From the NCBI GenBank assembly GCA_001769275.1, contig MEOQ01000045.1, positions 129,821 to 193,820 on the forward strand: a DNA stretch of 64,000 nt, read 5' to 3'. The number at the start of each line of letters is the position of its first letter. Position 1 is the first letter of the stretch. Below the pieces are notes generated by a model. That model saw nothing but the letters and a program-made list of their open reading frames with translations, ran no database searches and had not been told where the DNA came from. Below are positions 10,203 through 41,161 of this stretch, piece by piece. Source of the DNA: Bacteroidetes bacterium GWF2_43_63 (lineage in GTDB: Bacteria > Bacteroidota > Bacteroidia > Bacteroidales > DTU049). Both the position numbers and the translations under genes were made by a program.

Positions 10203-10214
10203 AGTATTTGATTT

Positions 10215-10936: not shown

Positions 10937-10981
10937 GTCAAATTTGTTTTTTCTAATTGTTAATCATTAAACTGTATTCCT

Positions 10982-12409: not shown

Positions 12410-12552
12410 TTTTATTGATTTTTCTCGGCTTATTAATCTTTTGTATTGTTGTGTTTTGAATCCTATTCGTTTTCAATCTGATATACACCTACTATCTGAA
12501 GCTTCGCCAGTTCAAGACCTCAAAAATCATCCACCGCGGCGAATTCGAATTT

Positions 12553-12703
12553 CCTTCATCCTTCAAACTTCCTTGTTCCTTGTTCATGATTCACGAATGT
12601 GTCTTCCCTTCATCCTTCAAACTTCCTTGTTCCTTGTTCATGATTCACGAATGTGTCGTCCCTTCTTCCTTCAAACTTCCTTGTTCCTTGTTCATGATTC
12701 ACT
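12553..12703. repeat. 54-bp tandem repeat, 2.8 copies
   Basis: The unit ccttcatccttcaaacttccttgttccttgttcatgattcacgaatgtgtcttc starts at 12553, 12607 and 12661. There are no unique spacers. Confidence 0.9.
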
Positions 12704-12710
12704 ACCTTTG
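12703..12710 (+). promoter_or_regulatory. Candidate -7 box (TAccTTTG) for the ABC-F gene
   Basis: tacctttg directly abuts the last repeat unit and lies 15 nt upstream of the GTG start at 12725. Confidence 0.4.
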
Positions 12711-12724
12711 CAAAAAATCTCTCA

Positions 12725-19039: not shown

Positions 19040-19267
19040 CATGATCTGCTAACGCAGACAGAAGTCTCTTCTCCAGTCGTGAGCAGCGAGCAGTGATCGT
19101 TGCGCTTTTGCTCTCTTCACAAAAGAGCGCTGTTCTCTAACATTTTTGCTGATCATGAAGCTTGAAAACAATATATATTTCAATCAGACATATCATTGTT
19201 TACATTGTTTCGGTCAGTAAATAGATGCTGTTTGTTTGCAATATATTTCGGTTAAGATATTTATTAG

Positions 19268-19275
19268 TATATTTG
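19268..19275 (+). promoter_or_regulatory. Candidate -7 box (TAtaTTTG) for the gene at 19294
   Basis: tatatttg lies 19 nt upstream of ATG 19294. Confidence 0.45.
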
Positions 19276-19293
19276 CCAAACAAATTGAACAAA

Positions 19294-26102: not shown

Positions 26103-26797
26103 TTTTTAATTTCAAAAGTATAACCAACACCTTTAACCGTACGAATCAGGCTCAGTCCGATTTTTTCGCGGATTTTACGAATATGAACATCAATGGTTCG
26201 ATCGCCGACAACAATATCATTTCCCCAGACTTTGGAAAATATTTCTTCGCGCGTAAAAACTTTTCCGGGTTTGCTGGCCAGCAATGCGAGCAACTCGAAT
26301 TCTTTGCGTGGAAGCAATATTTCCTGTCCTTCGCGAATAACAATATAGCGTTCGAAATTTATGGTGAGTCCTTCAAATTCAAGTTCCCTTGAGGATCCAG
26401 TACTGCTTTCGGTCGAAAAGCGACGCAAATATGTTTTGACTTTTGTCAGAAATACTTTAGGTGTAATGGGTTTGCTTATGAAGTCGTCGCCACCAGATTC
26501 AAGAGCCGCGATCTGTGCGAAATCTTCATTGCGCGCAGTCAGGAAAATAATGACTGATTTTTTCAGAGTATCATGTTTCCTCATTTCCTGACAGGCCGTG
26601 ATTCCATCCATACCCGGCATCATAATGTCCAGTACAATCAGCTGAGGTTCGATGTCCAGCGCCTTGGTGATTGCCGATTGGCCATCGCGGGCGGTAAATA
26701 CATTATAACCTTCCTTTTTCAGGTTGTAACTCATGATCTCGAGAATGTCCTTCTCGTCGTCCACCAGCAGTATTCGGATATTTTCGTTCTGATTCAT
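26099..26797 (-). CDS. OmpR/PhoB-family response regulator
   Basis: Receiver domain (..ILLVDDE..LDIMMPGMDG..) plus winged-helix output (..LTINFERY..LLPRKEFELL..VWG..RTIDVHI..LR.K). There is a 4 bp overlap with the kinase gene. Confidence 0.9.
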   Translation of the reverse strand: MNQNENIRILLVDDEKDILEIMSYNLKKEGYNVFTARDGQSAITKALDIEPQLIVLDIMMPGMDGITACQEMRKHDTLKKSVIIFLTARNEDFAQIAALESGGDDFISKPITPKVFLTKVKTYLRRFSTESSTGSSRELEFEGLTINFERYIVIREGQEILLPRKEFELLALLASKPGKVFTREEIFSKVWGNDIVVGDRTIDVHIRKIREKIGLSLIRTVKGVGYTFEIKK

Positions 26798-27068: not shown

Positions 27069-28385
27069 CTACAGCCCGCCCTCACCGCGGTAAAGCGACA
27101 ATTTGCCATCAAGAGTAACTTTAAGTACGGTCATGTATTTGTCCTGCACTCCTTCTGGGACATCAATGTAAACAATACCCGGAACCTTGCTCCAGGAGAT
27201 CTTTCCAACCACTTTGAAATCTGCGGGAGTGTTGGATCCAACCACTTCAATTTTTTTAATATCGTTGTTCAACCCTTTCAGAATCACATTTCCACTTTGA
27301 TTTCCCTGCAGGAACAAATACAGGGCAGTCGAGTCTTTTGAAATGGTGGTTGGTCCATAAAAATGTCCGAGCGGCATTCCTGCAACTGATTCGAAAACCG
27401 CTTCGCTGTGTTTGGCATTCCATTGACCGAGTTCCTGCATAATAAACAGCTGTTCTTCAGGAATGGTTCCATCGGCTTTCGGGCCAATGTCGAGTAATAG
27501 ATTGCCCCCAAAACTTATGCAATCGGCAAAAATACTTATGATTTCATAAGGCGTTTTATAGGCTGAATCTGTGATGTAATAGCCCCATGAATCATTCATG
27601 GTCATACACAATTCCCAGTTTTCCTTTTGTGGACGGACTACCGGAAAATGCTGTTCGGGCGTGGCATAATCGCCAAATCCCTGCAGACGGCCATTGATGA
27701 TTGCATTCGGATTATTTTTCAAAATTCTTTCACGAATACCGGCCGCATCCCATTCTTCGGCACTGTGTTCCCAATCGCCGTCAAACCAGACCAGGTCGGG
27801 ATTGTATTGCTCAAGAATTTCACTCAACTGGCCGTTGTTGAACTTAATGAATTTTTTCCATCGCTTTGGATCTGCACTGATTTCGTAACGACCCGAATCG
27901 CGCAGGAATCCGGGGTAATCTTCATGTGTCCAGTCAATCAGAGAATAATATAAGCCAAGTTTTAAGTCGGTTTTTCTTACTTCGTTCACAAACGGTGTAA
28001 GCACATCGCGCTTCGCCGGGGAACTTTTTTTTGTACTCAGGTCGTTGAATTTTGTGTCCCAGAGCGATACTCCGTCATGATGTTTCGAAGTAATAACTAT
28101 GTATCTGGCTCCGGTTTTTTCGATCAGCGATACCCATCCGGCCGGATCGTATTTCTCTGCCGTGAATTCACTAATCTGAGCCATATAATCCTTGTGACTC
28201 ATATGCCCGTTGTGAAACTCCCAGGACTCGCTGCCACGACCAGTGGAATAAATTCCCCAATGAATAAAAATGCCAAGTTTGGCATCGGAAAACCATTGCA
28301 TTCTTGCTGAATGGCTTGTGTCGGTCTGCGCAATGGCTTGAGTCGCCAGCAGAAACAGCAGGGAAATATTAAGCAGATATTTCAT
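27069..28385 (-). CDS. GH29 alpha-L-fucosidase
   Basis: Signal peptide, ..W..AK.GIFIHWG.YS.., ..KHHDG..LWD.., ..LVWFDG.W.. and a C-terminal beta-sandwich. Confidence 0.85.
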   Translation of the reverse strand: MKYLLNISLLFLLATQAIAQTDTSHSARMQWFSDAKLGIFIHWGIYSTGRGSESWEFHNGHMSHKDYMAQISEFTAEKYDPAGWVSLIEKTGARYIVITSKHHDGVSLWDTKFNDLSTKKSSPAKRDVLTPFVNEVRKTDLKLGLYYSLIDWTHEDYPGFLRDSGRYEISADPKRWKKFIKFNNGQLSEILEQYNPDLVWFDGDWEHSAEEWDAAGIRERILKNNPNAIINGRLQGFGDYATPEQHFPVVRPQKENWELCMTMNDSWGYYITDSAYKTPYEIISIFADCISFGGNLLLDIGPKADGTIPEEQLFIMQELGQWNAKHSEAVFESVAGMPLGHFYGPTTISKDSTALYLFLQGNQSGNVILKGLNNDIKKIEVVGSNTPADFKVVGKISWSKVPGIVYIDVPEGVQDKYMTVLKVTLDGKLSLYRGEGGL

Positions 28386-28494
28386 GACTTTTAATCTTGA
28401 GACAAAGAAACAAAATGAACAGTGCTAAGCCAAATTGTTTTTGAAAAGCGGGCCAGTATTTATTTGAAATGACGCTACAAAAGTCCAAAAGTTG

Positions 28495-29307
28495 CTATTC
28501 AAGCGTATAATCAAAATCAATATCAGGAATTATATTGTGGCAAAAGACGAAATTTTCGAAATCCGAAAACCATTGAATGACAGTATTTGAATCAACAAAA
28601 TAATTTTCGTTATTAATTATTTCATTATAGGAAGAATAAATCCACTCTTCCGGTCGTTGGAAAAAACCATGATAAACGGGGTTGTTGTGAATATACACAA
28701 CAAGCGTTCGCAAGTAATCATCGGACAACACTTCTTTTCGCTGAAAGGGATGAATAAACAATCCGCCCATTCGTTTGTTTTGCTTATTGAACGCCTGCGT
28801 ATAACTCGAAAACAAGTCGCCGAGCTGGCGGCTGATCCATATTTGAAGAAACGCTTCTACTTCCGATGCCGAGCCGTTTGAGCTTTTGAGGTCTTTTAAA
28901 GCTTCGAGTTTTCTAGAAGTCTTTTTATAGGCATTGAAGCGGGAGCTTGGGGATGTTTTTGCTGCGCTAAAGAAAGGTGGCAACTCCTCTTTCGCCATAA
29001 ACTTCAACGAAGTTTCAAACTTCGTTGAAGTTGGCGAAGAAGTTTCAAACTTCGTTGAAGTTGGCGAAGTTGAAGTTGGTTTAAGCATCTCTTCCAGCGC
29101 AGCAACAATCTCTTCGCAGCTTTTTACCCGAACCAGAAAATGAAAGTGGTTCGGCATCAGGCAATATGCGTAGGTGTCGAAAAACGCTGATAAATGAAAT
29201 TTGTATTTCTCGAGGAAAAACGAGAAATTTTCACCTTTGCGAAAAATATTTTCAAACCCGTTTGCATGATTATAAATATGGTAATATTTCCCGGATTCCA
29301 GATACAT
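28495..29307 (-). CDS. REP-associated tyrosine (Y1, HUH) transposase-like protein (RAYT / IS200-like) with an enlarged central insert
   Basis: HUH context ..YAYCLMPNHFHFLVRV.. and the Tyr-region motif ..VVYIHNNPVYHGF.. At 270 aa it appears longer than I would expect for this family, because of a low-complexity insert containing a 30-bp tandem duplication. Confidence 0.75.
   Translation of the reverse strand: MYLESGKYYHIYNHANGFENIFRKGENFSFFLEKYKFHLSAFFDTYAYCLMPNHFHFLVRVKSCEEIVAALEEMLKPTSTSPTSTKFETSSPTSTKFETSLKFMAKEELPPFFSAAKTSPSSRFNAYKKTSRKLEALKDLKSSNGSASEVEAFLQIWISRQLGDLFSSYTQAFNKQNKRMGGLFIHPFQRKEVLSDDYLRTLVVYIHNNPVYHGFFQRPEEWIYSSYNEIINNENYFVDSNTVIQWFSDFENFVFCHNIIPDIDFDYTLE
29010..29069. repeat. 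Perfect 30-bp tandem duplication containing a palindrome, inside the RAYT coding sequence
   Basis: aagtttcaaacttcgttgaagttggcgaag x2 (29010-29039 and 29040-29069). cttcaacgaagttt-c-aaacttcgttgaag (29002-29030) is a perfect 14-bp hairpin. The duplication is in frame and encodes SPTSTKFETS twice. Confidence 0.9.
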
Positions 29308-29329
29308 TATTGTTTGAAAATATTGCAGA

Positions 29330-30820
29330 CTAGAACTGAATATAAATAAACGGCATCGCGTCGAGACTGTAAAGCTGATAGAGTAATATTATAAGAACGG
29401 CCAGGGTTGCGGCTTTGAGCGACCAGTGGGTTTTAGTAAATCCACCTAGGATTCCTGCGTACATTTTTATTGGCAGATATTGCAAAATCAAACCGCCCAG
29501 CATCAACAGGAACGGGGTCATATAAATACCAAGCCATTGCGGAAACAGGGCAAAATCTGCAGTCAGAATAAAATTATAGAATTCGCCGGCTTTGGCTAAG
29601 TTGGGAACTTTAAGCAATACGGCTGTAAAAACCAGAAAATGAAAAGTGATAAAAATGCTGATGAAAGAATAAATGCTTTTTGGCATCCATTTTTGGATTT
29701 TTGATCTGGTGTTCTGGCTAATCACATCCCAGGCGATGGCTGCTCCATGCAAAAGGCCCCACACCACAAAGGTAAGGGCTGCACCATGCCACAGGCCGGA
29801 TACAAAAAATGTGATGAACACAGCCAGCAATATGAGCGATTTTCCACCCCGGCGCCACGCGAAGGCCATGGGTTGATACAAATATTCATTGAGCCAGTTG
29901 TATAATGTGATGTGCCAGCGGCGCCAGAATTCAGTGATGTTGCCTGCAATGAACGGCTTGTTGAAGTTGTGCTCAATGGTAAATCCCATCAGGCAACCAA
30001 ATCCAACCATCATGTCGGTGTAGCCGGCAAAATCGAAATAGAGTTGCAGCAAACCTCCATAAGCGGCCATCAGCGCGTCAAGCCCGGTAAAATATTGCGG
30101 ACTTTCGAAAACGCGATCCACCAGATTTGCAGCAATAAAATCTGCGAAAACAATTTTTTTGATTAGTCCAAGCATGATTAAAAACAGTCCTTTGCTCAGG
30201 ATGTTTTTGTCAATGATTGGTTTTGAAATAAATTGAGGAAGTAAATCGCGCGCCTTCGAAATGGGCCCGGCCAGAATATTTGGAAAAAACGAAACATACA
30301 GCACATAGCGGAACCAGTTGCGCTCGGGCTCTTCGATGACTTCGCGGTGGATATCGAAAATGTAGGTGAGCGATTTAAAAACAAAGTAGGAAATGCCGAG
30401 TGGCTGAACGATTTTCAGCACCAGGGGCTCTGTTCCCGGGTGAACAAAACCCGTCCATGTTTCAAGCAGAAAATTGGTGTATTTGAAATATAAAAGGGCG
30501 CCAACATTGATGGCTACAGACAGCACCAGAAGCCATTTTTTACTTGCATCACTTTTTGATTTGTGTATGCCTTTTCCAATAAAAAAATCAATGGTGGCCA
30601 TCAGAATCATCACTCCGACAAAAAGTCCGCTAATTTTGTAATAGAAGTATAAGCTGAAAAGCAGGAGGACACTGTTCCGCAAAGTGCGGTTGTTGAACGA
30701 TAGCGAATACAGCAGATAGAAGAATGCGAAGAGTATGAAGAATGTGACAGACTGGAATATAAGCGGCTGTCCGGGCAGATATTGAAGCGAATACAGAAAG
30801 TCGGTAAACGAAAAATTCAT
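29330..30820 (-). CDS. MBOAT family O-acyltransferase (DltB/AlgI/PatA-like)
   Basis: Polytopic membrane protein with ..FWRRWHITLYNWLNEYLY.. and the conserved His region ..SGLWHGA.. Confidence 0.9.
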   Translation of the reverse strand: MNFSFTDFLYSLQYLPGQPLIFQSVTFFILFAFFYLLYSLSFNNRTLRNSVLLLFSLYFYYKISGLFVGVMILMATIDFFIGKGIHKSKSDASKKWLLVLSVAINVGALLYFKYTNFLLETWTGFVHPGTEPLVLKIVQPLGISYFVFKSLTYIFDIHREVIEEPERNWFRYVLYVSFFPNILAGPISKARDLLPQFISKPIIDKNILSKGLFLIMLGLIKKIVFADFIAANLVDRVFESPQYFTGLDALMAAYGGLLQLYFDFAGYTDMMVGFGCLMGFTIEHNFNKPFIAGNITEFWRRWHITLYNWLNEYLYQPMAFAWRRGGKSLILLAVFITFFVSGLWHGAALTFVVWGLLHGAAIAWDVISQNTRSKIQKWMPKSIYSFISIFITFHFLVFTAVLLKVPNLAKAGEFYNFILTADFALFPQWLGIYMTPFLLMLGGLILQYLPIKMYAGILGGFTKTHWSLKAATLAVLIILLYQLYSLDAMPFIYIQF

Positions 30821-30821
30821 A

Positions 30822-32828
30822 CTACTTGATGCTTAGTTTTTGTCCGACATTCAGATTGTCGGATGTCATTTTGTTATCCTTCTTGATTTTATCGACGGTC
30901 GTATTGTATTTTTTTGCGATTGACCAGAGCGACTCACCGCTTTTCACAATATGAACAGTGCCGAGTTTGTTGCTTTGAGTCTGAGTGGTCTGTTGTTGTG
31001 TTGTAGTCTGTGTTGACGTTTTTTGGGCCGTTCCTGCGGTATAAATCACCAGCGTTTTCCCGGCAACAATATTACTTGATGTCAGCCCATTCCATTTTTT
31101 AATATCGTCAACAGACACTTTGTATTTCGCCGCAATCGAGCCGAGGTTGTCGCCACTTTTTATGGTATACACTACTTTCTTACTTCCGCTGCTTGTTTGC
31201 TGCGTAGAAGTATTCTGCACCGTAGTATTTTGTGTTGTTGTGTTTTTTACAGCTGTTTTGCTCACTAGCAGCTTCTGGCCTGCATTAATACGGGTGGAAG
31301 AAAGATTGTTCCATTTTTGAAGATCAGAAACCGTTACTCCATAACGCTTTGCAATGGTGCTTAGATTGTCGCCGGATCGCACAATATAGTACTGGCCTGT
31401 TCCCTGACCTGATGTTTTTATTCCACCTGTCTGATTTTTGTAATTCTCAATTTTGTCAGTCGCAGCAACTTCCTGACGGTTGTAATAGGTGGATTTATTA
31501 ATAACCCAATTACCAAAATTGGTAGTATCGATGTGATCATTGAAAACGAGCAGGCTATCGGGATAGCGCGACAGGTAAGCAATGTATGAATTGAGCAGGG
31601 CATTGCAATACAATTCGCCTTTCACTTTGTAGCCCTTGTAACTAAGATGGCAGCGGTCGCGCTGCGACAATCCGTTCTTTGCCCAATTCAGCATGGATTG
31701 AGGCCCGCCGGATATATTGTAATAATCATAAAGAACAACATTCTGTTCTTTTGAAAGCAATCGGGTGAGCATGCTGTAATCTTTGCAGTTGGTAATATTT
31801 CTTCCGCGATAATAAATATCTTGTGCATTTGGCAGCATGAAAACAGCATTGGGTGCCGACTCGCGGAAAAGCGCGATCGATTTGTTGATGCTGCTCATGA
31901 TGTATTGATAGTTGAATGTGCCGCGAAAAAAATCATTAATTCCCAAATCAAAAATCACAAGATCGGGCTTCACTGCCTTTAGCTGCGTAGAAGTAAGGTT
32001 TTGATTGAAAAAACTGTGATAGCCTGCGCCGTTGATCCCAACGCTGATGTATTGAATACCGGAGTTGGCCACGCTCTGGATTTCGATACCATAACACTCG
32101 AAATATTTTTGTTCGGGCGATGTTTTGTTCACAACAAGTGTCAGTGTGTCCGATGCTTTTGGCAGAATTACCTCGACATACGGAAGGCTGTCGGAATGGC
32201 AATCTGCATCAACCCACGTGTTGGTGCCACCGGCTTTTATTTTCGCATCGAAACTTTCTTTTCCTTTGTGGCAATAGATGCGAATCCTTTTAAAATCGGG
32301 CTGAATGGAGTAGTAGTGTTTTCTGAAAATCAGCTTGAATCCTGCGGTTGAGTCGGTCGTGAATACCGTGATGCCACTGATGCCAATATTCATTTTTGGC
32401 TTTAGCTCTACATTTTTCGATGCTGACCAGACTCCATGCGACTGAGCAAAATAATCAAACGCAGAATGGGTGCCGGCTGCCTGATAAGGGAAAACTATCC
32501 CGCGTCCACCGAAGCCAAAAATCTGCTGAAGCATTGCCCGGGTGATACCCGTTCCAATGTCGCTCTGAATGTGAGAATCGCCAATATGTAGAATGACGAC
32601 TTTTTCCTTGTTGGATTTTTTTAGCTTTTCGAAAAATGGTGCTATGGCATCGATCTGATACCACTCAAGCATGTTTTTATCGTACTGTAAAAAATCGAAA
32701 AATTCGCTGTACTTGACGGCTTGCTTCAGGTAATTTGTATCAGTTGGATTCTTCTGAGCATGGCTTTTCAGGCCGAAGAACAGAAGTCCGGTGATCAACA
32801 CAAATATTTTGAAATTACCTGTCATCAT
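30822..32828 (-). CDS. Exported SGNH/GDSL-type hydrolase/acyltransferase fused to three C-terminal LysM domains
   Basis: Signal peptide, block I ..ILHIGDSHIQSD.., later ..DLGINDF.. and ..RDRCHLS.. Three LysM repeats (YYIVRSGDNLSTIA, VYTIKSGDNLGSIA, VHIVKSGESLWSIA) are separated by T/Q-rich linkers. Confidence 0.85.
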   Translation of the reverse strand: MMTGNFKIFVLITGLLFFGLKSHAQKNPTDTNYLKQAVKYSEFFDFLQYDKNMLEWYQIDAIAPFFEKLKKSNKEKVVILHIGDSHIQSDIGTGITRAMLQQIFGFGGRGIVFPYQAAGTHSAFDYFAQSHGVWSASKNVELKPKMNIGISGITVFTTDSTAGFKLIFRKHYYSIQPDFKRIRIYCHKGKESFDAKIKAGGTNTWVDADCHSDSLPYVEVILPKASDTLTLVVNKTSPEQKYFECYGIEIQSVANSGIQYISVGINGAGYHSFFNQNLTSTQLKAVKPDLVIFDLGINDFFRGTFNYQYIMSSINKSIALFRESAPNAVFMLPNAQDIYYRGRNITNCKDYSMLTRLLSKEQNVVLYDYYNISGGPQSMLNWAKNGLSQRDRCHLSYKGYKVKGELYCNALLNSYIAYLSRYPDSLLVFNDHIDTTNFGNWVINKSTYYNRQEVAATDKIENYKNQTGGIKTSGQGTGQYYIVRSGDNLSTIAKRYGVTVSDLQKWNNLSSTRINAGQKLLVSKTAVKNTTTQNTTVQNTSTQQTSSGSKKVVYTIKSGDNLGSIAAKYKVSVDDIKKWNGLTSSNIVAGKTLVIYTAGTAQKTSTQTTTQQQTTQTQSNKLGTVHIVKSGESLWSIAKKYNTTVDKIKKDNKMTSDNLNVGQKLSIK

Positions 32829-34291
32829 TTACCGGCAGTTGTTCCGTGAATTAAATATTTATTGTATTCGCCCATAATGGCGAGGAAAAGTTCATTGACA
32901 ACAATCTCACGTCCTTTGTCGCTGTAATGTCCGTCACGCGATGCCCAGCCCTTTTTATTCCAGGCCAGCACAGAGTTTTCGCCACCCATCAGCTGATACA
33001 GATCGAAAAATGCACAACCGTTTTTCAGCGCTACTTCTTTCTGAACATCACGAATTCGGCTTACCATCGGGTACGATGCATAGGTTCCGCCAACACTGCG
33101 TGCAACATCGTTCACACCAATTACAAGCACGGATGCATCGGGCAGGGCTTTGCGGAAATGCGCGTAGAGCCGGTCGTAGCTGTTTTTGATGTTGTTCAGC
33201 GACGCTTCATTTTTCACATAGGGTGTAACGTTTCCGCCAAACTGGAGTATTACAAGTTTGTTATTTAGCTTTATGAATTGTGCTTTCAAAAAATCGTTTT
33301 GAATAGTCATAAGTCCGTCGCCGCTATGTCCGCGTAGACCATAATTGTCAAATTGAACTCCGGCACCGGGATCAAAGCTCAGTCCGTAAATCTCAGGACT
33401 GGGGCCGGTGAACACGAATTTTAATGCTGCCGGATTCGATTTAAGCGGAAGCTTCAAAACATTGAATGGATCGGGACTATCAAGCACAACTTCGGCCAAA
33501 AGTTCATTGGTTTTTGAATTATAAACTTTCAGCTCAGCTGTTTCAGTTGCTTTTCCATACCATAATTTTGCAACACTGTAGCCGCGGAAAAGTTTCAGAT
33601 ATACAGTTGCATTTGCGTAGGAACAAGCTGGAATTTTTATTTTGGTTGTATCTCCGTTTTCTCCGATGCTGTCGCGTGTGCATTCCGGAGTTGAAAAACG
33701 ATAACGGAACACAGCTCCTCCGGCACAATACAACCCTTTGGCAGAGCGATTATGAAACACAGTGTGGCGAACCCAGTTGGGGCTTGTGCTTCGCGTATAA
33801 CTAACCGGCGAAGTCACATCGTCGATTGGAACATAACCAACTCCACTGCCGCCAAACTTGTCCTGAAACATGATCCGGAGCAGGCTTGTGATGCGGTCTC
33901 CCTCGATTTGCGAATCGCCATAATGGCCGATACGAATGAGCGAAGAATCGCTTTTTTGCAGATATTTGAAAAAATTCTCCAGCGCAGTGCCACCTTCGGC
34001 AGCCGAAGGATTAAGGAAAAAATCGCTGGAATTAAACACTGATTCATCAAGAATGCTCATGCGTTTTATAGCATCCTCGTTCACGCCGTAGGCGCGCGAT
34101 TCAAGCATCGCAATCACACTGTCTACATTTTGTGTATTGTCCTTTACTTTAAAATTCAGAATTTCTTCCTTTGGAATAAAAGTAATAATCCTGTTGCCTA
34201 CAACAATCTCGCTTTTTGGCCAGAAACAGGATGCTGCAAGCAGGAGTACGCCTGTCAGCACAATAATTGCAAAGACCTGATATCTCTTCAT
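32825..34291 (-). CDS. Membrane-anchored SGNH-like protein (DltD/AlgJ/PatB-like)
   Basis: N-terminal TM anchor (VFAIIVLTGVLLLAASCFW), block I ..IGHYGDSQIEGDRIT.., ..VIGVNDV.. and ..RDGHYS.. There is a 4 bp overlap with the downstream gene. Confidence 0.75.
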   Translation of the reverse strand: MKRYQVFAIIVLTGVLLLAASCFWPKSEIVVGNRIITFIPKEEILNFKVKDNTQNVDSVIAMLESRAYGVNEDAIKRMSILDESVFNSSDFFLNPSAAEGGTALENFFKYLQKSDSSLIRIGHYGDSQIEGDRITSLLRIMFQDKFGGSGVGYVPIDDVTSPVSYTRSTSPNWVRHTVFHNRSAKGLYCAGGAVFRYRFSTPECTRDSIGENGDTTKIKIPACSYANATVYLKLFRGYSVAKLWYGKATETAELKVYNSKTNELLAEVVLDSPDPFNVLKLPLKSNPAALKFVFTGPSPEIYGLSFDPGAGVQFDNYGLRGHSGDGLMTIQNDFLKAQFIKLNNKLVILQFGGNVTPYVKNEASLNNIKNSYDRLYAHFRKALPDASVLVIGVNDVARSVGGTYASYPMVSRIRDVQKEVALKNGCAFFDLYQLMGGENSVLAWNKKGWASRDGHYSDKGREIVVNELFLAIMGEYNKYLIHGTTAGK

Positions 34292-34292
34292 T

Positions 34293-34538
34293 TTATGCGA
34301 TCAGCTTTTCATTGATGATGGTCAGCATATCGCCGACGTTTTTCATTTTCACCATTTCTTTCAACTTGAAACGGAATCCAAAAGCCTCTTCCACTTTTGC
34401 AATCATGGTTAAATGTGTGAGGCTGTCCCATTTGTCAACATCGTTGGCTGTCATTTCAGGGTTGATAACAAGAGCTGGTGCCTGAAACACGTCTCTGAAA
34501 ATTTCCTGAACCTTTGAATTGATTTCTTCGTTGTTCAT
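34293..34538 (-). CDS. Acyl/peptidyl carrier protein (DltC-like)
   Basis: 81 aa with the phosphopantetheine attachment context ..DVDKWDSLTHLTMI.. Confidence 0.85.
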   Translation of the reverse strand: MNNEEINSKVQEIFRDVFQAPALVINPEMTANDVDKWDSLTHLTMIAKVEEAFGFRFKLKEMVKMKNVGDMLTIINEKLIA

Positions 34539-34545
34539 AGTATTA

Positions 34546-35235
34546 TTATCCTTTCATTAAATTCATTATGTCGACTTTCATTAACAGCATTCCGGCTCCG
34601 GGAAAGTATTTCAGCACGTCCGGGTCGTCACAATAAGTACGTTCTGTAATGGTGAATCCCATTTTTTCGTATGCGTGAATGGCTGTTTTGTTCTCAATGT
34701 AAGTCATCAGTTCGGCATTGCTGACCGGATACTGCTGCAATAGATATTTTGCAACATGCGCTTTGAAGAGCTTTGTAATTAGTCCCTTGCCTCTGTGTTC
34801 TTCCGCGACAAATGCAGATTCAAACTGCAGATCTCCATCCGTGCGATGCACCATCATTTTGTCGGTGATGTGTTTTTGGTTCTGCACAAATTCCAGTGCC
34901 CCTTTCGGATAGTATTGCTGCATGAGCACCGAACGCACCATCCATGATGAAACACCATCAAGGCCCTCAATCCATGCGGAAATACAAGCCACAGGTTTCC
35001 CTTCATATTCTGCAACAAGAAAGTGAAACGGCGAAAATTCGCATCCTTCCACTTCTTCGGGCATCATGGCTTCAATAGCGTCGCGTGCCTGCTCGTAGCT
35101 GATTCCGAACAAGGCAGCATAACTTGTGTTTGTGCCGGTTGAGCCGATATCTGCTTTCAGAATGGCTTCAGCCAGAAAACGATAATCGCTTTCCTTCGCG
35201 CGGCGTATGGTGTAGTTGAGATCAGTCATGTCCAA
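34546..35235 (-). CDS. GNAT family N-acetyltransferase
   Basis: ..FVAEEHRGKGLITKLF.. (Q/RxxGxG/A-like acetyl-CoA loop) plus a C-terminal ..AIHAYEKMGF.. motif. It overlaps the upstream ligase gene by 14 bp. Confidence 0.75.
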   Translation of the reverse strand: MDMTDLNYTIRRAKESDYRFLAEAILKADIGSTGTNTSYAALFGISYEQARDAIEAMMPEEVEGCEFSPFHFLVAEYEGKPVACISAWIEGLDGVSSWMVRSVLMQQYYPKGALEFVQNQKHITDKMMVHRTDGDLQFESAFVAEEHRGKGLITKLFKAHVAKYLLQQYPVSNAELMTYIENKTAIHAYEKMGFTITERTYCDDPDVLKYFPGAGMLLMKVDIMNLMKG

Positions 35236-36694
35236 GTACCAGATTATTAATTTCTCTGCGGTTTATTTTGCCATTGTTGTTTAGCGGAAAGCTGCTTATG
35301 AAGCGGAATTCGGAAGGAATCATATAGAATGGCATTTTGCTTTTCAGATAATCGTTCAAGTCGTGTATCGCGTCTTCGCTGCCTTCAATGGCTGCAACAA
35401 TAACGTCGTTTCCTGTAGTATCGTGTGCGGCCATGGCAACTACTCTGCGATTTTCGTAAAACGAAGCAATATGATGTTCTATTTCGCTCAATTCCACACG
35501 GAAGCCGCGGATTTTAACCTGATAATCTTTACGTCCAAGATAAAAGTACAAGCCGTTTTCACGAATACATATATCCCCGGTGCGGTAAAAATTCTTCCCA
35601 TTTATTTCAACAAACGCTTCGCGGTTTTTTTCTTCATTCTTCAGATAACCCGTAATTACCTGACCTCCGTTGAGGAGCAGTTCTCCTTTTTCGCCATCCG
35701 CCACAATTTTATTCTCATCATCAACAATCACTGCATCAATGTCGAGCGTAGGCCAGCCGATACTGACAATGCCATTGCGCGAAGGAATTTCATTTTCCGG
35801 CATGCGATACCACACGGAATAAATAGTTGCTTCGGTAGGTCCGTACAGATTTTGAAATTCCGCATTTGGACAGCATTTCTTCCACTCAAGAGTGAGTCCG
35901 TGCGGAACCGCTTCGCCGCTGAGACACATGTATTTCATTTTTTCGAGCATGATCTCATCGAAGTATGGCCGTAGATAAGCAACCACGCTGGGAACGAGAA
36001 TGGCAAACTCGATTTCATATTCTTCGAGCAGTCTGAAAATTGTTGGATACTTAATATTGTTGTTCGGAACTGAAAACAAAGTTCCTCTGCAAATAAACGG
36101 TGACAAAATGGAAACAATGCTTAGGTCGAAACTGAGATCGAACATCTGCAGAAAGCGGCTGCCCGGGCCAAGTTGGTAATTCATTGTTTCGAGGTTGCGC
36201 AGAAAAGAGCGCACATTGCCGTATGAAACCGGAACACCTTTTGGCTGACCTGTACTGCCGGAAGTAAAAAGAATATAGGCCGTGTCATTGTCTTCGGGCG
36301 ATGCAGGATGGTCAAAAATATTTTCTTTCAGATCGCACGTACATACGAATTCGGAATTGGCTTGCACTTTTTCTGTGCTGTGCAGAATGAGTTTTATTTC
36401 AGCCTGCTCAACAATGCTCGCAATGCGGTCGGACGGGTGGTAGGGGTTGAGTGGTACATAAATATTTCCGGTGGCCCAGATGGCCATGGCTGCGGCATAA
36501 GTGTCGGCATGATCCGAAGCCACAACACCGACAGCAGCTTTTTTCAAGCCACGCGAAGTAAGCAAAGATGCAATGGCATCGATTCGATTGCGAAACGAAG
36601 TGTAGGAATAAAAAACGTCCTCAACGCAAATGGCATTCAGCTTTTCATCGTAGTCTGGAAGAAACGGAAATATCACCTTGTTTGTTTTTTGCAA
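35222..36694 (-). CDS. Stand-alone adenylation enzyme (DltA / NRPS A-domain-like carrier-protein ligase)
   Basis: Core motifs ..AYILFTSGSTGQPKGV.. (A3), ..NLYGPTEATI.. (A5) and ..YRTGD....GRKDYQVKIRGFRVELSEIE.. (A7-A8). Confidence 0.9.
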   Translation of the reverse strand: MQKTNKVIFPFLPDYDEKLNAICVEDVFYSYTSFRNRIDAIASLLTSRGLKKAAVGVVASDHADTYAAAMAIWATGNIYVPLNPYHPSDRIASIVEQAEIKLILHSTEKVQANSEFVCTCDLKENIFDHPASPEDNDTAYILFTSGSTGQPKGVPVSYGNVRSFLRNLETMNYQLGPGSRFLQMFDLSFDLSIVSILSPFICRGTLFSVPNNNIKYPTIFRLLEEYEIEFAILVPSVVAYLRPYFDEIMLEKMKYMCLSGEAVPHGLTLEWKKCCPNAEFQNLYGPTEATIYSVWYRMPENEIPSRNGIVSIGWPTLDIDAVIVDDENKIVADGEKGELLLNGGQVITGYLKNEEKNREAFVEINGKNFYRTGDICIRENGLYFYLGRKDYQVKIRGFRVELSEIEHHIASFYENRRVVAMAAHDTTGNDVIVAAIEGSEDAIHDLNDYLKSKMPFYMIPSEFRFISSFPLNNNGKINRREINNLVLGHD

Positions 36695-36713
36695 AAGTAG
36701 TCATTTCAGGCAA

Positions 36714-36721
36714 TATTTTTG
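36714..36721 (+). promoter_or_regulatory. Candidate -7 box (TAttTTTG) for the CAP-domain gene
   Basis: tatttttg lies 40 nt upstream of ATG 36761. Confidence 0.4.
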
Positions 36722-36760
36722 CAGTGCGGCGCGCTATTCATTGACACCCTTTTGTTAATC

Positions 36761-37330
36761 ATGCGAACATTTTTTCTTCTTCTTGCCCTTTTTATTGTCA
36801 GTCCGGTTATACATGCACAGACCGACACCAGTCTGAGAGCCATGAATGAGCGGGAAATTGAATTGTACAGGCAGATTATGGAATACCGATCAAAAAAGCG
36901 ATTGAAAAGTATTCCTGTTTCATCATCGCTTACAAAAGTAGCTCAGTGTCATGTCCGCGATTTGAACAATTACCCGCCTGCAAAAAAATGTGGTATGCAC
37001 AGTTGGAGCGAAAATGGGCCATGGAAGCCGGTTTGCTACGATGCTGCGCGCAATGGCCCCGAGTTGATGTGGAGTAAGCCATCGGAACTGACTTCGTATA
37101 TCGGCAGGGGTTACGAAAACTCATTCTGGACAACAGATACTTCTTTCAGGGCTGAAGATGCACTTGCTGCCTGGAAATCGAGTCCTCCGCATAATTCTGT
37201 AATCATAAACCTCGGTATGTGGAAAGACTCGAAATGGAAAGCCATTGGATTGGCTGCCGAAGGGAATTATGCAGTAGTCTGGTTTGGCGAGAATGAAGAT
37301 CCAGCCGGGAACATTGATTTACCGGAATAA
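36761..37330 (+). CDS. Secreted CAP (SCP/PR-1-like) domain protein
   Basis: Start moved to MRTFFLLLALFIVSPVIHAQ. C-terminal ..AAWKSSPPHNSVI......KAIGLAAEGNYAVVWFGE is CAP-like. Confidence 0.65.
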   Translation: MRTFFLLLALFIVSPVIHAQTDTSLRAMNEREIELYRQIMEYRSKKRLKSIPVSSSLTKVAQCHVRDLNNYPPAKKCGMHSWSENGPWKPVCYDAARNGPELMWSKPSELTSYIGRGYENSFWTTDTSFRAEDALAAWKSSPPHNSVIINLGMWKDSKWKAIGLAAEGNYAVVWFGENEDPAGNIDLPE

Positions 37331-37347
37331 TTATTTTCTGAAAGGTC

Positions 37348-38766
37348 TTACAACATTGACCGGATCAGCAGGAACAGCCCGCCCGACATGACAATGGTAA
37401 CCGGGATGGTAATAACCCAGGTGAGCAGAATGTTGTAAATGGTTTTCATTTGCAGATTGTGCCAGCCGCCTTCATACACCATAGATCCTGCAATGCCGGA
37501 TGAGAGCACATGGGTTGTACTTACCGGCAAGCCAATGGTTGACGAAGACATGATGGTTGCGGTTGCTACTATTTGGGCGCTGGCGCCTTGTGCATAACTC
37601 ATCTGCGTTTTGCCGATTTTTTCACCAAGTGTTGTTACAATACGTTTCCAGCCAATCATAGTACCGAGCCCAAGTGAAATTGAAACCATCAGAATCACCC
37701 ACCAAGGTGCATATTCCGTGTAAGAGTCCATTTCCTTAATATCGTTTTTCAGCATTTTGCTTTCTTTATGATTCAACACAAGTGCATTGTTCTTAACGAC
37801 AGAAGGACTTTTTAGAAACTCATTCATTTTTTTCTTAATGGTAAGAATGTCTTTTCTTGCATTGAATCGGTCGAGCTTGTCTGATTGTTCAGGATTCTGT
37901 GCTATCAGTAAATTCCCTTTAAGATCAGAAATACAGGATGTCAGTGTAGTATATACAGGCAGATCGGCCACCAGGATTTTTGTAGTATCGGTTTTGCCAA
38001 TATAATACTCAATGTGATTTACATTACCGATCATATTGGATGGGTTTTTCGAAATATCGAGTGCGAAGTGTGCAGGCAGCAAGCTGATCAGAATAATCAT
38101 AATCAATCCAACTCCTTTCTGTCCATCATTGGAGCCATGCGAATAACTTACGGTGGTGCATGTCCCGATCAGCAGTAAACGCACCCAAAAAGGCGGCTTT
38201 TTCTCCGGATCGGCAGGTTTGAAAAACTTTTTCTTTCGGATGGTTCGTTTTAAAATGTGCATCAAAAGAATTGTAAGCCCAAAGCCGATTACCGGTGAAA
38301 TCAAAAGTGCGCTGAATGCTTCAATAACTTTTGTCCAGTTAAGCGCTGCACCACTTGAGTCTGAAATGAAAAGAAAGGCAAGACCAACGCCGAAAATACT
38401 TCCAATGAGTGTGTGCGAGCTGGAGCAGGGAATACCGAAATACCAGGTGCCAAGGTTCCAGATGATGGCTGTCAGAATTAGCGAAGCAACCATCGCAACA
38501 TTATGACTGATGTTTTGGTCGAGCAGAATTTCGAGGGGCAGCAGATTAATAATACCAATTGCAACCGCAATTCCACCAAAATAAACGCCTAGAAAATTGA
38601 AGATTCCGGACCAGATTACTGCTACCCGGGGTTTCAGCGAACGTGTGTAAATGACCGTTGCAACTGCATTGGCCGTATCGTGAAATCCATTGATAAATTC
38701 AAACGCCATGGCTGCCAATATGCAACCAAACAACAGGATGGTCATCCCTAAATCAAGTCCGAACAT
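37348..38766 (-). CDS. Inorganic phosphate transporter, PiT (PHO4) family
   Basis: ..NGFHDTANAVATVI.. at the N-terminus and ..SHGSNDGQKG.. in the second half, with a long cytoplasmic loop between the halves. Confidence 0.9.
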   Translation of the reverse strand: MFGLDLGMTILLFGCILAAMAFEFINGFHDTANAVATVIYTRSLKPRVAVIWSGIFNFLGVYFGGIAVAIGIINLLPLEILLDQNISHNVAMVASLILTAIIWNLGTWYFGIPCSSSHTLIGSIFGVGLAFLFISDSSGAALNWTKVIEAFSALLISPVIGFGLTILLMHILKRTIRKKKFFKPADPEKKPPFWVRLLLIGTCTTVSYSHGSNDGQKGVGLIMIILISLLPAHFALDISKNPSNMIGNVNHIEYYIGKTDTTKILVADLPVYTTLTSCISDLKGNLLIAQNPEQSDKLDRFNARKDILTIKKKMNEFLKSPSVVKNNALVLNHKESKMLKNDIKEMDSYTEYAPWWVILMVSISLGLGTMIGWKRIVTTLGEKIGKTQMSYAQGASAQIVATATIMSSSTIGLPVSTTHVLSSGIAGSMVYEGGWHNLQMKTIYNILLTWVITIPVTIVMSGGLFLLIRSML

Positions 38767-38846
38767 TTTTTCTAATTTCCTGCAAATTTCCTGGAAATTC
38801 CAATATGAATTTAATGTTACGCATTAATAACCATTTGGTAACAATA

Positions 38847-38895
38847 AATTAATATTGACCCGGATCTGTCAGTTGATTCCGGGTCAATATTAATT
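38847..38895. terminator. Perfect 18-bp-stem hairpin between the two PiT genes
   Basis: aattaatattgacccgga (38847-38864), a 13 nt loop, then tccgggtcaatattaatt (38878-38895). It lies 14 nt downstream of the 38909 stop on the minus strand. Confidence 0.6.
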
Positions 38896-38908
38896 GAAAA
38901 ACAAGCTG

Positions 38909-41161
38909 CTAGATCAAGCGGTAATCAGTGTCGGCCGCCTGGCTTTTGGTTCTGATATCGAGTTCTGTCAATTCATTTACAAAGCGCGTGATATTCTGAA
39001 TTTCGGTGGTGATGTTGAAAAACAGCAGACTTGAGCGTGATGCATTTTCTTTGCGTTTCACCCGCTCGATCTGAGAACGCCGGACAATTTTGATTTTATC
39101 GCAAACGACATTGGCTATCTGATGCAGATCGTCGGCCAGGCCACGACCCGAATCTTCCATCACAATTTTCTTTGAGAAGTCGCATAACTGCTGCAGATCT
39201 TCGGACAAAGACTCGAAATCGCGCATTTGATTTTTGCCGAGATTTTTATGCTGATTATTGATGTGATTATACACAGGGTGCGTCAAATAACCAAGACTGA
39301 CTGAGATTTCACGGAGGATTTCAGCGTTTTTGAGATAGTATTCGCCATAGAGCACGTAATTGTCTCCCAGTGCTGAAATTGAGCTGTTGACGGTTGAGCT
39401 GAACAATTCTGTCCGCTTATTAATGTCTTTCACAATTTCATCAGCTTCTTTCAGCTTTTTCAGTTTTTCTTCTTCAAGGCCTTCACGGATTAAAGTGACG
39501 ACTTCAGGAATTTTCTCTATTACATACGAAACATTGGTTCTGCATAAGTCGAGAATTTCGCTTTCGCCGGTATTCTCATCAATGCGTAACATGTTTTCTT
39601 TTTCCTGATAATCCTTTTCGCGACGACGGTGAATAACTTTGCTGCGGACAAGAAAGAATATGGCAAATACGGACAGAAGAACGACTGAAACAATGCTGCC
39701 CAGATAGAGCACATAGGCAAGCAGTGCGGCAGAAAGGAAGGCCAGAAATGCTGTAATGAACCAACCGCCAATTACAGTGGTAACTCCGGAAACGCGATAC
39801 ACAGCGCTGTCGCGGTCCCAGGCGCGGTCAGCCAGTGATGTTCCCATGGCCACCATGAAAGTAACATAGGTTGTTGAAAGCGGGAGTTTGAGCGATGTTC
39901 CGAATGCAATGAGACTTGATCCGACGGTGAGATTTATTGCAGCGCGTACCATGTCAAATGCCGGTGCATCGGGACTGTTGCTCATTGGAGGAGCAGCAAA
40001 CCGTTTTTCGATCCAGCGATGGACAGCAGGAATGCGTACCAGTGTAAAGAAATTTCCGATTGAAACAGCCAGTTTTACAAGCGAACGAGCTACCGGATTG
40101 GTGTCGAAATTTTCAACACCTTCGTTCTGACGCGACAATCCAACCTCGGTGCGGATAACGGTTCGGGTTTTTTTATTGAGCCACAAAGTCAGCAACATGA
40201 TTAATCCAGCCCCCATCAGAAATCCAACCGGAACCTTGGCCGGAGTACTTAATGTCTCCATTGTCATTGTTGGATCTCCGGTTACAGAATAGGCCTGGTA
40301 GGCATCGAGACCAGCCAGTGATGGTCCGAGAAAGTTTACGAGGTCATTACCAGCAAATGCCATGGCGATTGCAAAAGTTCCATAAATCACAATGACCCGA
40401 AAAACATTTACTCTGAAAAGCAATTGCAACATCAACAGAATTACAGCGGCCCCTGCCATTACTGAAGTAAGCATCAATGCAAGGTGCTGGGCCACATATT
40501 CTTTCATGTCCTTATCGATGAAAGTGGCCGATTTCATTCCTTTGAAAAATATAAAATATGAAATAAGGGCGATTGCAATGCCACCGAAAATGGCTCCGCC
40601 GATTTTATATCTTGAGAAGTTGAAACTGAAAACAGTTCGCGCAATTTTTTGAATAAGCAATCCGAAAAAGAAAGCGATGGCAATGGATACAAAAATAGCA
40701 ATGATCATTGCAAAAGCTTTTTCTGTATTCATGTACATATCGAGATCGCCAATTGCCTGCCCATTTTCAACAAGTTTTGCCACTGAAAAAGTAAAGGAAG
40801 CACCCAGCAACGCCGCAACCAGAGAAACGGTTGTCGATGTTGGCAGTCCAAGCGTATTGAAGAAATCAATCAGCAGCACATCGTTGAGCATTACGGCCAG
40901 ATAAATCATAATGACTTCTTCGAACATAAAATATTGCGGATGAAACACCCCTGATCGCGCCACGTCCATCATGCCGCCGGCAAACAAGGCGCCAACAAAA
41001 ACACCCAGCGAAGCTATCACGAGCAACCACTTGAAAGTGAGACTACGGGAGCCGTACCCGGAGTTGAGAAAGTTTACTGCATCGTTGGCCACACCGACGG
41101 TGAGATCCATTATTGAGAGCAGAAAAAGTACGACCAATACACCTATAAAATAATATTCCAT
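38909..41161 (-). CDS. PiT-family phosphate transporter fused to a ~250 aa C-terminal cytoplasmic helical (PhoU-like, tentative) domain
   Basis: N-terminal ..GVANDAVNFLNS.. and a second-half ..FAGNDLVNFLG.. PiT signature pair. After the last TM (..FFLVRSKVIHRRRE) comes a long charged helical region. Confidence 0.8.
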   Translation of the reverse strand: MEYYFIGVLVVLFLLSIMDLTVGVANDAVNFLNSGYGSRSLTFKWLLVIASLGVFVGALFAGGMMDVARSGVFHPQYFMFEEVIMIYLAVMLNDVLLIDFFNTLGLPTSTTVSLVAALLGASFTFSVAKLVENGQAIGDLDMYMNTEKAFAMIIAIFVSIAIAFFFGLLIQKIARTVFSFNFSRYKIGGAIFGGIAIALISYFIFFKGMKSATFIDKDMKEYVAQHLALMLTSVMAGAAVILLMLQLLFRVNVFRVIVIYGTFAIAMAFAGNDLVNFLGPSLAGLDAYQAYSVTGDPTMTMETLSTPAKVPVGFLMGAGLIMLLTLWLNKKTRTVIRTEVGLSRQNEGVENFDTNPVARSLVKLAVSIGNFFTLVRIPAVHRWIEKRFAAPPMSNSPDAPAFDMVRAAINLTVGSSLIAFGTSLKLPLSTTYVTFMVAMGTSLADRAWDRDSAVYRVSGVTTVIGGWFITAFLAFLSAALLAYVLYLGSIVSVVLLSVFAIFFLVRSKVIHRRREKDYQEKENMLRIDENTGESEILDLCRTNVSYVIEKIPEVVTLIREGLEEEKLKKLKEADEIVKDINKRTELFSSTVNSSISALGDNYVLYGEYYLKNAEILREISVSLGYLTHPVYNHINNQHKNLGKNQMRDFESLSEDLQQLCDFSKKIVMEDSGRGLADDLHQIANVVCDKIKIVRRSQIERVKRKENASRSSLLFFNITTEIQNITRFVNELTELDIRTKSQAADTDYRLI

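Follow-up and report, generated by a model that had tools for sequence, protein, structure and literature searches.

The 64,000-nucleotide window analysed here (contig MEOQ01000045.1 of the metagenome-assembled genome Bacteroidetes bacterium GWF2_43_63, GenBank assembly GCA_001769275.1, positions 129,821 to 193,820 of the forward strand) carries on its minus strand, between positions 29330 and 36694, an operon of six genes whose probable function is to decorate the cell wall with an unusual group derived from an amino acid. We give an even chance to the reading that this operon is a carrier-protein-fed version of the peptidoglycan O-acylation machinery of Bacteroidota, for which an N-acetylated small aminoacyl group is proposed as the substituent. 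MBOAT-SGNH pairs are a general route by which bacteria acylate the polymers of their envelope, and a system of this kind is as such known; what is new is the combination of a known core cluster (two SGNH genes and an MBOAT gene) with a known donor logic, supplied by a ligase, a GNAT and a small carrier protein. Gene content, catalytic residues, family assignments and the conserved linkage of the carrier to the MBOAT and to the first SGNH gene (Ape1b) are all observed directly.

Results

Gene content and order of the operon

The six open reading frames (ORFs) that an earlier note, made from the sequence alone, had placed on this strand were all recovered exactly where that note put them, and profile searches bore out each of its domain calls (AMP-binding, GNAT, PP-binding, Lipase_GDSL_2, LysM and MBOAT). 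The features are listed in the order of transcription, with two elements lying inside the last two genes.

35222..36694, minus strand: adenylating ligase, 490 amino acids, TTG start
34546..35229, minus strand: GNAT N-acetyltransferase, cytoplasmic, 227 amino acids from ATG (229 from the TTG at 35235)
34293..34538, minus strand: carrier protein, 81 amino acids, with the codon of the phosphopantetheine serine, Ser39, at 34422-34424
32825..34291, minus strand: SGNH-A, membrane-anchored, assigned to the Ape1 family and Ape1b-like, with a beta-sandwich insert (profile and predicted fold)
30822..32828, minus strand: SGNH-B, exported, assigned to the Ape1 family and Ape1c-like, with three C-terminal LysM domains (sequence matches)
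30825..31388, minus strand: LysM triplet, residues 481-668 of SGNH-B, a peptidoglycan-binding module (three LysM stretches in Pfam)
29330..30820, minus strand: PatA-type MBOAT, 496 amino acids (MBOAT match at 9e-24)
29333..29350, minus strand: putative acyl-shuttle hexapeptide F-I-Y-I-Q-F (FxYxxF), C-terminal in the MBOAT (ORF end ...AMPFIYIQF)

The ligase and GNAT genes overlap by 14 nucleotides if the GNAT begins at its TTG, or by 8 if it begins at the ATG at 35229, as in the public annotation of this protein (P0121, 227 amino acids). The carrier gene follows the GNAT gene after a gap of 7 nucleotides and SGNH-A follows the carrier after 1; SGNH-A and SGNH-B overlap by 4, and a single nucleotide separates SGNH-B from the MBOAT. 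A sigma-70 promoter and terminator scan of 28300-37400, run with a model unsuited to Bacteroidota promoters, returned sites no more frequently than in shuffled sequence.

Conservation of the gene order, a check which the earlier note had proposed, was examined in two sets of loci. The second of these consists of 60 metagenome loci found by scanning with the carrier alignment (the GNAT alignment held no sufficiently conserved block), and the six-gene order is complete in at least nine of the loci collected, namely the metagenome loci L093, L102, L103, L114, L115, L125, L126, L129 and L132. It is also present in L091 and in genome loci such as L006, L007, L009, L010 and L019, while further copies are cut by contig ends. 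The loci concerned are deeply diverged, their SGNH-A scores ranging from 166 to 1000 bits, and given such recurrence elsewhere the arrangement in the window is far beyond chance.

A known core cluster in Bacteroidota

Weadge et al. 2005 (PMC1199599) described O-acetylpeptidoglycan (OAP) clusters ordered ape1b, ape1c, pat in Bacteroides (B. thetaiotaomicron and B. fragilis) and in Porphyromonas (P. gingivalis), two genera whose peptidoglycan is O-acetylated; in the two Bacteroides species this O-acetylation was measured at 27-69%. The succession SGNH-A, SGNH-B, MBOAT in the window is that of ape1b, ape1c and pat, a match of gene order and of Ape1 family. On this comparison of sequences the three-gene core is the Bacteroidota OAP cluster, which is already known bioinformatically and is not new. 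Later use of the names Ape1b and Ape1c in this sense was not found in the literature searched.

The other set of loci came from a genome scan anchored on SGNH-A, which returned more than 590 relatives; those carrying a label are mostly from Bacteroidota, with some from metagenome-assembled genomes (MAGs) labelled Ignavibacteria. Genome-locus counts given here refer to the best 80 loci of these relatives. SGNH-A, SGNH-B and the MBOAT stand in this order in 58 of the 80, and 48 of the 80 lack a carrier although their upstream sequence extends for 3 kb or more. Five loci from Ignavibacteria-labelled MAGs (L004, L005, L014, L017 and L033) hold OAP triads without a carrier but with a conserved extra SGNH gene, and each has a gene for a 570-amino-acid AMP-binding protein just upstream on the opposite strand.

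The MBOAT and its association with the carrier

An alignment of the window MBOAT with DltB (6bug, 1.8e-24) shows both histidine motifs, RWH and WHG, to be conserved; on the DltB model TIGR04091 the protein scores 186 bits, the cut-off being 375. The terminal FxYxxF motif is shared by 58 related MBOATs out of 65; the remaining seven end in unrelated sequence, and six of these are shorter than 380 amino acids. In PatA, the tyrosine of this motif undergoes auto-acetylation and then passes the acetyl on to PatB, whereas in Dlt systems the motif resides on a separate microprotein, DltX (PMC12148441). No DltX-like micro-ORF with an FxYxxF motif was found at or near the operon. Judged by the fused motif, the catalytic histidine and a score below the DltB cut-off, the MBOAT is assigned to the PatA type.

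In a neighbour-joining tree of the 65 MBOATs, those of carrier-linked OAP loci form one clade which includes the window MBOAT and in which a carrier gene is adjacent in 14 of 15 members. Its sister lineages lack a carrier and comprise the Ignavibacteria-labelled loci, loci of the A-M-B type, and distant loci labelled Flavobacteriia or Chitinophagia. The carrier protein is encoded in the operon and co-inherited with the MBOAT clade, unlike the carrier-free use of acetyl-CoA by PatA. When the metagenome loci are viewed from the carrier, 24 have Ape1b as the following gene, 11 a polysaccharide-type MBOAT, 5 another MBOAT and 8 neither, despite room downstream, the remaining 12 running into a contig end; of the 48 informative loci, 40 therefore have the carrier directly ahead of Ape1b or of an MBOAT.

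The same carrier family also occurs in other arrangements around the triad, and a hidden Markov model of the family gives 116-140 bits on carriers from all locus types. In L012, L015, L021 and L022 the carrier alone stands ahead of Ape1b, and the genes further upstream are unrelated. In L001 (12857-14739), L013 (14742-16712) and L016 (9218-11105) a carrier of this family lies downstream of the MBOAT together with an acetate-CoA-ligase-like enzyme, which scores 683 bits on NF003313 (cut-off 729) and matches acetyl-CoA synthetase in the PDB at 1.5e-148. The motif of this enzyme reads DTWFQTETG, where Salmonella Acs has WW. L013 has a second carrier gene, upstream, in addition to the downstream one. 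From adjacency, the MBOAT clade and the carrier family shared across arrangements, the carrier appears to belong to the MBOAT system in function.

The proposed donor cassette

The ligase matches AMP-binding at 7e-63 and TIGR01733 at 312 bits (cut-off 317). Its best single-domain match in the PDB is DltA (3fcc, 225 bits), and module 2 of LgrA follows with 200 bits; by these similarities it is a stand-alone amino-acid adenylation (A) domain, nearest to DltA and to the A domains of nonribosomal peptide synthetases (NRPS). Extraction of the specificity residues, which had been proposed earlier, gave the code DLVSCSLIYK (residues 190, 191, 194, 236, 257, 259, 283, 291, 292 and 476), resembling those of DltA and of Gly-activating domains. 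Codes in the six-gene loci are DLMSLCVIFK, DLMSQCVIYK or DLVSCSLIYK. At Stachelhaus position 301, where a D-Ala-specific pocket of the Dlt type would carry Cys, the window ligase has Ser, with Cys at 299, and most relatives, with DLMSLCVIFK, have Cys at 301. For comparison, the Gly-activating LgrA module 2 has DIASLCIIYK, as read from the ligase alignment, and the code of DltA, taken from a B. subtilis sequence, is DLMSMCTVAK, with a numbering consistent to within one residue. Asp235 and Lys517 are kept in the window ligase and are invariant in the 120 listed homologues, and the substrate should therefore be an alpha-amino acid whose amine is free at the activation step. The pocket would probably suit a small amino acid (D-Ala, Ala or Gly, for example).

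A different code, DLDSCSLIYK, in which position 239 is acidic and would point to a basic amino acid as substrate, was considered and ruled out. The A4 core motif of this ligase is tandemly duplicated (FDLSFDLS, window 36119-36142, ligase residues 185-192), and both a HMMER alignment to LgrA and a MAFFT alignment place the true A4 in the second FDLS copy. The duplication spans the ligase family, often as FDL(S/T)FDLS or FEL(T)FDLS, and misleads motif-anchored extraction of the code.

The carrier matches PP-binding at 2.7e-5 and has the motif W37-D-S39-L; W37, S39 and H42 are invariant in the family. Its best PDB match is 2lml, a 'putative acyl carrier protein', at 7e-16, and DltC was not among its PDB hits.

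The GNAT matches Acetyltransf_7 and Acetyltransf_1 at about 1e-10, and its motif A (R146-G147) and motif B (Y187) are invariant. Its AlphaFold (AF2) model has a pLDDT of 90.9, and the Foldseek matches of that model are ordinary N-acetyltransferases, a search which gave no support to a FemX-like, AHL-synthase-like or OlsB-like acyl-carrier-using fold. The family is sharply bounded, with about 240 representatives at 50% identity (E<=1e-30). Its members include ligase-GNAT fusions of 716 amino acids (P0303, P0409) and GNAT-carrier fusions of about 300 (P0266, P0270), and the three proteins would therefore behave as one adenylation-GNAT-thiolation (A-GNAT-T) unit. In a further protein of 440 amino acids (P0262) two stretches match the GNAT family profile, and Pfam recognises a GNAT domain in the C-terminal half only. 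A GNAT gene lies between ligase and carrier for 19 of 20 ligases in OAP context, and beside 3 of 11 in polysaccharide context.

The ligase-GNAT-carrier trio is a portable cassette, conserved as a unit even where it stands alone, as it does beside secE-nusG in L088 and L090. In the capsule or exopolysaccharide (EPS) loci L086, L087 and L089 (about 8000-13100), ligase, carrier and in some cases GNAT precede a different MBOAT, which ends in FIYFKF or FIYFQF and is followed by a membrane-anchored protein of 312-314 amino acids with GDS ... DGAH motifs. This partner of the polysaccharide-type MBOATs has no Pfam match and looks SGNH-like on reading its sequence. Two tandem ligases, with codes DVQSITFIYK and DAMSLGLIVK, precede a single carrier-MBOAT pair in L122 and L123. 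Such loci suggest the existence of aminoacylated polysaccharides in Bacteroidota.

The SGNH pair

SGNH-A matches Lipase_GDSL_2 over residues 315-462, and SGNH-B matches the same family in addition to three LysM domains (2.4e-49), so that the LysM triplet claimed for this protein is real. The two are paralogues (E 1e-17), identical at 25% of about 390 aligned residues. A profile built from SGNH-A homologues matches Ape1 of N. meningitidis (4k3u, an O-acetylpeptidoglycan esterase) at 4.7e-22 as well as Ape1 of C. jejuni, and SGNH-B matches both of these proteins, the former at 4.3e-14. The AF2 model of SGNH-A (pLDDT 83.8) has an N-terminal membrane helix (residues 3-23), then the block I strand, and a beta-sandwich of about 165 residues (about 150-316) inserted ahead of the remaining SGNH fold. 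In Foldseek the model finds C. jejuni Ape1 (2.4e-21) and N. meningitidis Ape1 (TM 0.80) first, with TM values of 0.76-0.80 and E values of about 1e-20 to 1e-21, and the next-best match lies at merely 4e-6. DltD, AlgX, AlgJ and PatB are absent from its top 50 matches, and no protein of the operon matches the DltD Pfam domain. By sequence both proteins belong to the Ape1 family, which consists of SGNH enzymes with an inserted CBM35-like domain and to which SGNH-A is assigned by its predicted fold as well. The Dlt-style reading that the earlier note had given them must be abandoned in favour of Ape1-family paralogues, and an identity with DltD or AlgX was likewise dropped on the predicted fold, Ape1 being by far the best match for SGNH-A.

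Alignment, which had been left as a check, found the catalytic Ser and His intact in both proteins. Ser127, Gly321, Asn354 and His455 of SGNH-A are conserved over 17 sequences, and Asp453 mostly so; Ser85, Gly267, Asn298, Asp391 and His394 of SGNH-B are invariant over 88. SGNH-A also has an unusual and invariant block, GDSQxEGDR.

The LysM repeats of SGNH-B resemble those of LytE and MltD. Among 87 loci with a full-length SGNH-B, 38 have LysM on that protein and 8 more have a separate LysM ORF. Elsewhere in the window, a gene at 5002-6513 (plus strand) encodes an MltD-like lytic transglycosylase with an SLT domain and two LysM domains, so that LysM occurs on another peptidoglycan enzyme of the same genome; lytic transglycosylases are enzymes that O-acylation of peptidoglycan would block.

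Surroundings of the operon

The operon is flanked in the window by genes for a CAP-domain protein, phosphate transporters and a fucosidase, and no polysaccharide locus surrounds it. The transporter genes (37348-41161, minus strand) are two adjacent members of the PHO4/PiT family, encoding 472 and 750 amino acids, the second with a long C-terminal extension. On the other side, 22 bp downstream of the MBOAT and on the same strand, lies an ORF of 270 amino acids (28495-29307, minus strand), whose N-terminus reads like an IS200/RAYT-type transposase (YHIYNHANG...YCLMPNHFHFLV) and which is broken by the low-complexity repeat SPTSTKFETS, present twice; it has no Pfam match at 1e-4. An OmpR-type response regulator and a histidine kinase are encoded at 25050-26797 (minus strand), 2.5 kb downstream of the operon, and in L012 (2829-5817) a response regulator, a kinase and an MprF-like LPG_synthase_TM gene lie directly upstream of the carrier-OAP genes. 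These regulator and kinase neighbours could reflect a link to envelope stress or be coincidental. The earlier remark that the genome bears a type IX secretion system (T9SS) agrees with Por_Secre_tail (T9SS C-terminal sorting) domains on two proteins of the window (10982-12409 and 19225-20610, both plus strand).

Discussion

The hybrid that the earlier note had envisaged, in which the donor logic of Dlt is joined to the acceptor logic of Pat, is upheld by comparative genomics. As to what such a hybrid would do, we infer which acyl group is used, which step the GNAT performs, what the acceptor is and how the two SGNH proteins share the work, and propose the following sequence of events. In the cytoplasm the ligase would adenylate a small alpha-amino acid (D-Ala-, Ala- or Gly-like) and load it as a thioester upon the phosphopantetheine arm of the carrier. 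The GNAT, as part of the A-GNAT-T unit, would then use acetyl-CoA to acetylate the carrier-bound aminoacyl group on its free alpha-amine. Any N-acetylation would have to occur after loading, on the aminoacyl-S-carrier, because the ligase needs a free amine and the GNAT is cytoplasmic; a precedent for such a step is the formylation domain of LgrA, which acts on Val-S-carrier. This is the least certain step of the scheme, and the suggestion made at the outset, that the transferred group is itself N-acetylated, is strengthened by the ligase-GNAT and GNAT-carrier fusions while remaining conditional. Much as DltB draws on DltC, the MBOAT would draw the acyl group off the carrier and pass it, on the outer face of the membrane, to the tyrosine in its own FIYIQF motif; the acyl-tyrosine chemistry of a fused motif has been shown for PatA (PMC12148441). 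SGNH-A may then accept the group on Ser127, and the group would be esterified to the peptidoglycan glycan, either directly or by way of the LysM-anchored SGNH-B in a relay like that from AlgJ to AlgX. Alternatively, SGNH-B could be an Ape1-like esterase that trims the modification. As a statement about the whole clade, namely that it esterifies the peptidoglycan glycan with an N-acetylated small amino acid (e.g. N-acetyl-D-alanyl or N-acetyl-glycyl) built by the A-GNAT-T unit and exported by a PatA-type MBOAT, the proposal is a tentative one, which we would sooner expect to see revised than confirmed in full.

Several observations weigh against this proposal. The likeness to the OAP genes of Bacteroides and Porphyromonas rests, in terms of sequence, on gene order and Ape1 homology. 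The ligase, which had been called DltA-like, is indeed closest to DltA and NRPS A domains but falls under the cut-offs of the DltA equivalog models (277 bits against 560 for TIGR01734, and 293 against 476 for NF003417), and its code is not assignable to a single amino acid, the DltA code used in the comparison being that of one B. subtilis sequence. The same cut-offs bear on public annotation, in which the ligases of several relatives are named 'D-alanine-poly(phosphoribitol) ligase', a label that the models do not justify and that makes little sense in diderms. In the active site of SGNH-A the spacing is D-G-H rather than DxxH, with N-G-H in two homologues. Both SGNH proteins retain the block II glycine typical of esterases (Gly321 and Gly267, assigned from spacing and motif and not by structural superposition), and neither is an obvious transferase, since Ser or Asn occupies this position in the transferases PatB and OatA (PMC12148441). 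Which of the two would act as transferase is thus not readable from sequence, because both keep the glycine. The acetate-CoA-ligase-like enzyme of L001, L013 and L016, the GNAT-free ligases of the polysaccharide loci and the loci without a detectable LysM also count on this side, and are taken up with the alternatives they favour.

The first of these alternatives is that a free amino acid is transferred as in Dlt, which would place a cationic D-alanyl or glycyl ester on peptidoglycan and leave the GNAT a side role in proofreading, detoxification or regulation. GNATs that acetylate aminoacyl-nucleotides are known, and MccE and RimL detoxify mis-activated aminoacyl-adenylates. The nearness of the ligase code to DltA and Gly-activating domains would suit a free amino acid, and the GNAT is not needed for transfer as such, because in ligase-carrier-MBOAT systems of the polysaccharide type 8 of the 11 ligases do without it. 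A side role sits poorly, however, with the near-constant presence of the GNAT beside OAP-type ligases (19 of 20), and the fusions suggest tailoring that takes place in cis and on the pathway. On balance we consider transfer of an unmodified amino acid unlikely.

The acceptor might instead be another glycan of the envelope, such as lipopolysaccharide (LPS), capsule or an O-glycan, with LysM merely anchoring SGNH-B to the wall. The cassette does feed other MBOATs in the capsule and EPS loci L086, L087 and L089, and LysM went undetected in 41 of the 87 loci with a full-length SGNH-B. Against this stand the membership of both SGNH proteins in the Ape1 family, whose members act on peptidoglycan, the correlation of the cluster type with peptidoglycan O-acetylation (PMC1199599), and the position of the window operon outside any polysaccharide locus; we judge a different acceptor to be quite unlikely. 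Peptidoglycan as the proposed acceptor is supported by the Ape1 assignments, by the LysM triplet and by the 2005 correlation of cluster and O-acetylation. The pointer from LysM to peptidoglycan given by the earlier note agrees with these other lines, and it is weakened by the loci in which LysM was not detected.

It is also conceivable that the end product is ordinary O-acetylated peptidoglycan and that the cassette presents acetyl-S-carrier to the MBOAT, for instance through S-acetylation of the carrier by the GNAT. A GNAT that transfers acetyl to sulphur has a precedent in the GNAT loading domain of CurA. In L001, L013 and L016 the same carrier family and MBOAT clade are paired with the acetate-CoA-ligase-like enzyme in place of the amino-acid ligase, and a plain acetyl group fits at least these three loci; the core cluster type is, moreover, the one correlated with O-acetylation in Bacteroides (PMC1199599). 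Such a product would nevertheless leave the amino-acid ligase without a role, though it is conserved, with Asp235 invariant, in every six-gene locus, and the fold of the GNAT matches N-acetyltransferases. We therefore hold plain O-acetylation by the six-gene operon to be distinctly improbable. That the trio and the Ape1b-Ape1c-MBOAT triad are unrelated neighbours by chance, as the trio alone beside secE-nusG and the 48 of 80 triads lacking a carrier could suggest, is already disfavoured and hardly credible in view of junctions of 1-8 nucleotides, adjacency that recurs over the whole range of SGNH-A divergence, the monophyly of carrier-linked MBOATs, and the attachment of carrier-only and acetyl-CoA-synthetase-like-plus-carrier variants to the same triad.

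The current mechanistic division is between Dlt, with a carrier as donor and DltX as a separate shuttle, and the other pathways, with an acyl-CoA donor and a fused shuttle. Non-Dlt MBOAT/SGNH pathways have been said to lack a carrier protein because they use acyl-CoA (2025 PatA/PatB paper, PMC12148441). The carrier-linked clade contradicts this generalisation at the level of gene content. The operon and its relatives break the division: a fused-shuttle, PatA-type MBOAT has co-evolved with a dedicated carrier, and the enzymes that load the carrier are exchangeable. As the earlier note had supposed, no pathway of this composition was found described in the literature searched, where nothing relevant on dlt genes or carrier-dependent MBOAT systems in Bacteroidota was found either. 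If a carrier-fed system of this kind is at work, it would provide a new ester substituent on the peptidoglycan of environmental and anaerobic Bacteroidota, with a bearing on the control of lysozyme and autolysins, and a natural system in which to study donor selection by MBOATs; it would also explain the many 'D-alanine-poly(phosphoribitol) ligase' annotations in diderm genomes without teichoic acids. Should the group indeed be an N-acetyl-aminoacyl one, it would be a previously unknown modification of peptidoglycan and the operon the first carrier-protein-fed member of the PatA branch, with a donor cassette that is interchangeable (an acetyl-CoA-synthetase-like ligase taking its place in related loci) and that also serves capsule MBOATs.

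Comparison with known systems

The closest relative in gene order is the OAP cluster of Bacteroides and Porphyromonas (PMC1199599), which shares with the operon two Ape1-family SGNH genes followed by an MBOAT gene in Bacteroidota. That cluster, known there bioinformatically, has no ligase, GNAT or carrier, and acetyl-CoA is presumed to be its donor. With PatA/PatB/Ape1 of Neisseria and Campylobacter the operon has in common an MBOAT with a fused FxYxxF motif, SGNH partners in the periplasm and an Ape1-like enzyme that bears a module for binding peptidoglycan; it differs in having no PatB-type transferase, as both SGNH proteins keep the block II glycine, and in a donor that appears to be an acyl-carrier and not acetyl-CoA.

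The likeness to DltABCD(X) of Firmicutes lies in the stand-alone ligase, the small carrier, the MBOAT, the membrane-anchored SGNH protein, the logic of an acyl-tyrosine shuttle and the DltA-like pocket. However, the ligase and MBOAT fall under the DltA and DltB cut-offs, the shuttle is fused and DltX absent, the SGNH proteins are Ape1-like rather than DltD-like, and the operon adds a GNAT and a second, LysM-bearing SGNH protein in a diderm host without teichoic acids. AlgI/AlgJ/AlgX likewise combines an MBOAT with a paralogous pair of SGNH-like proteins, one membrane-anchored and one soluble, the soluble one with a C-terminal carbohydrate-binding module; the SGNH sub-family and the polymer differ, the alginate system uses acetyl-CoA, and the operon has no AlgF, so that the likeness is one of architecture only. 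Last, the initiation module of the NRPS LgrA (formylation, adenylation and thiolation, F-A-T) offers the parallel of an A domain that loads a carrier and a tailoring acyltransferase that modifies the alpha-amine of the tethered group, and the family of the operon includes A-GNAT and GNAT-T fusions. Unlike LgrA, the operon has neither a condensation domain nor a peptide product, its tailoring enzyme is a GNAT and not a formyltransferase, and its acyl group would be exported through the MBOAT to a wall polymer.

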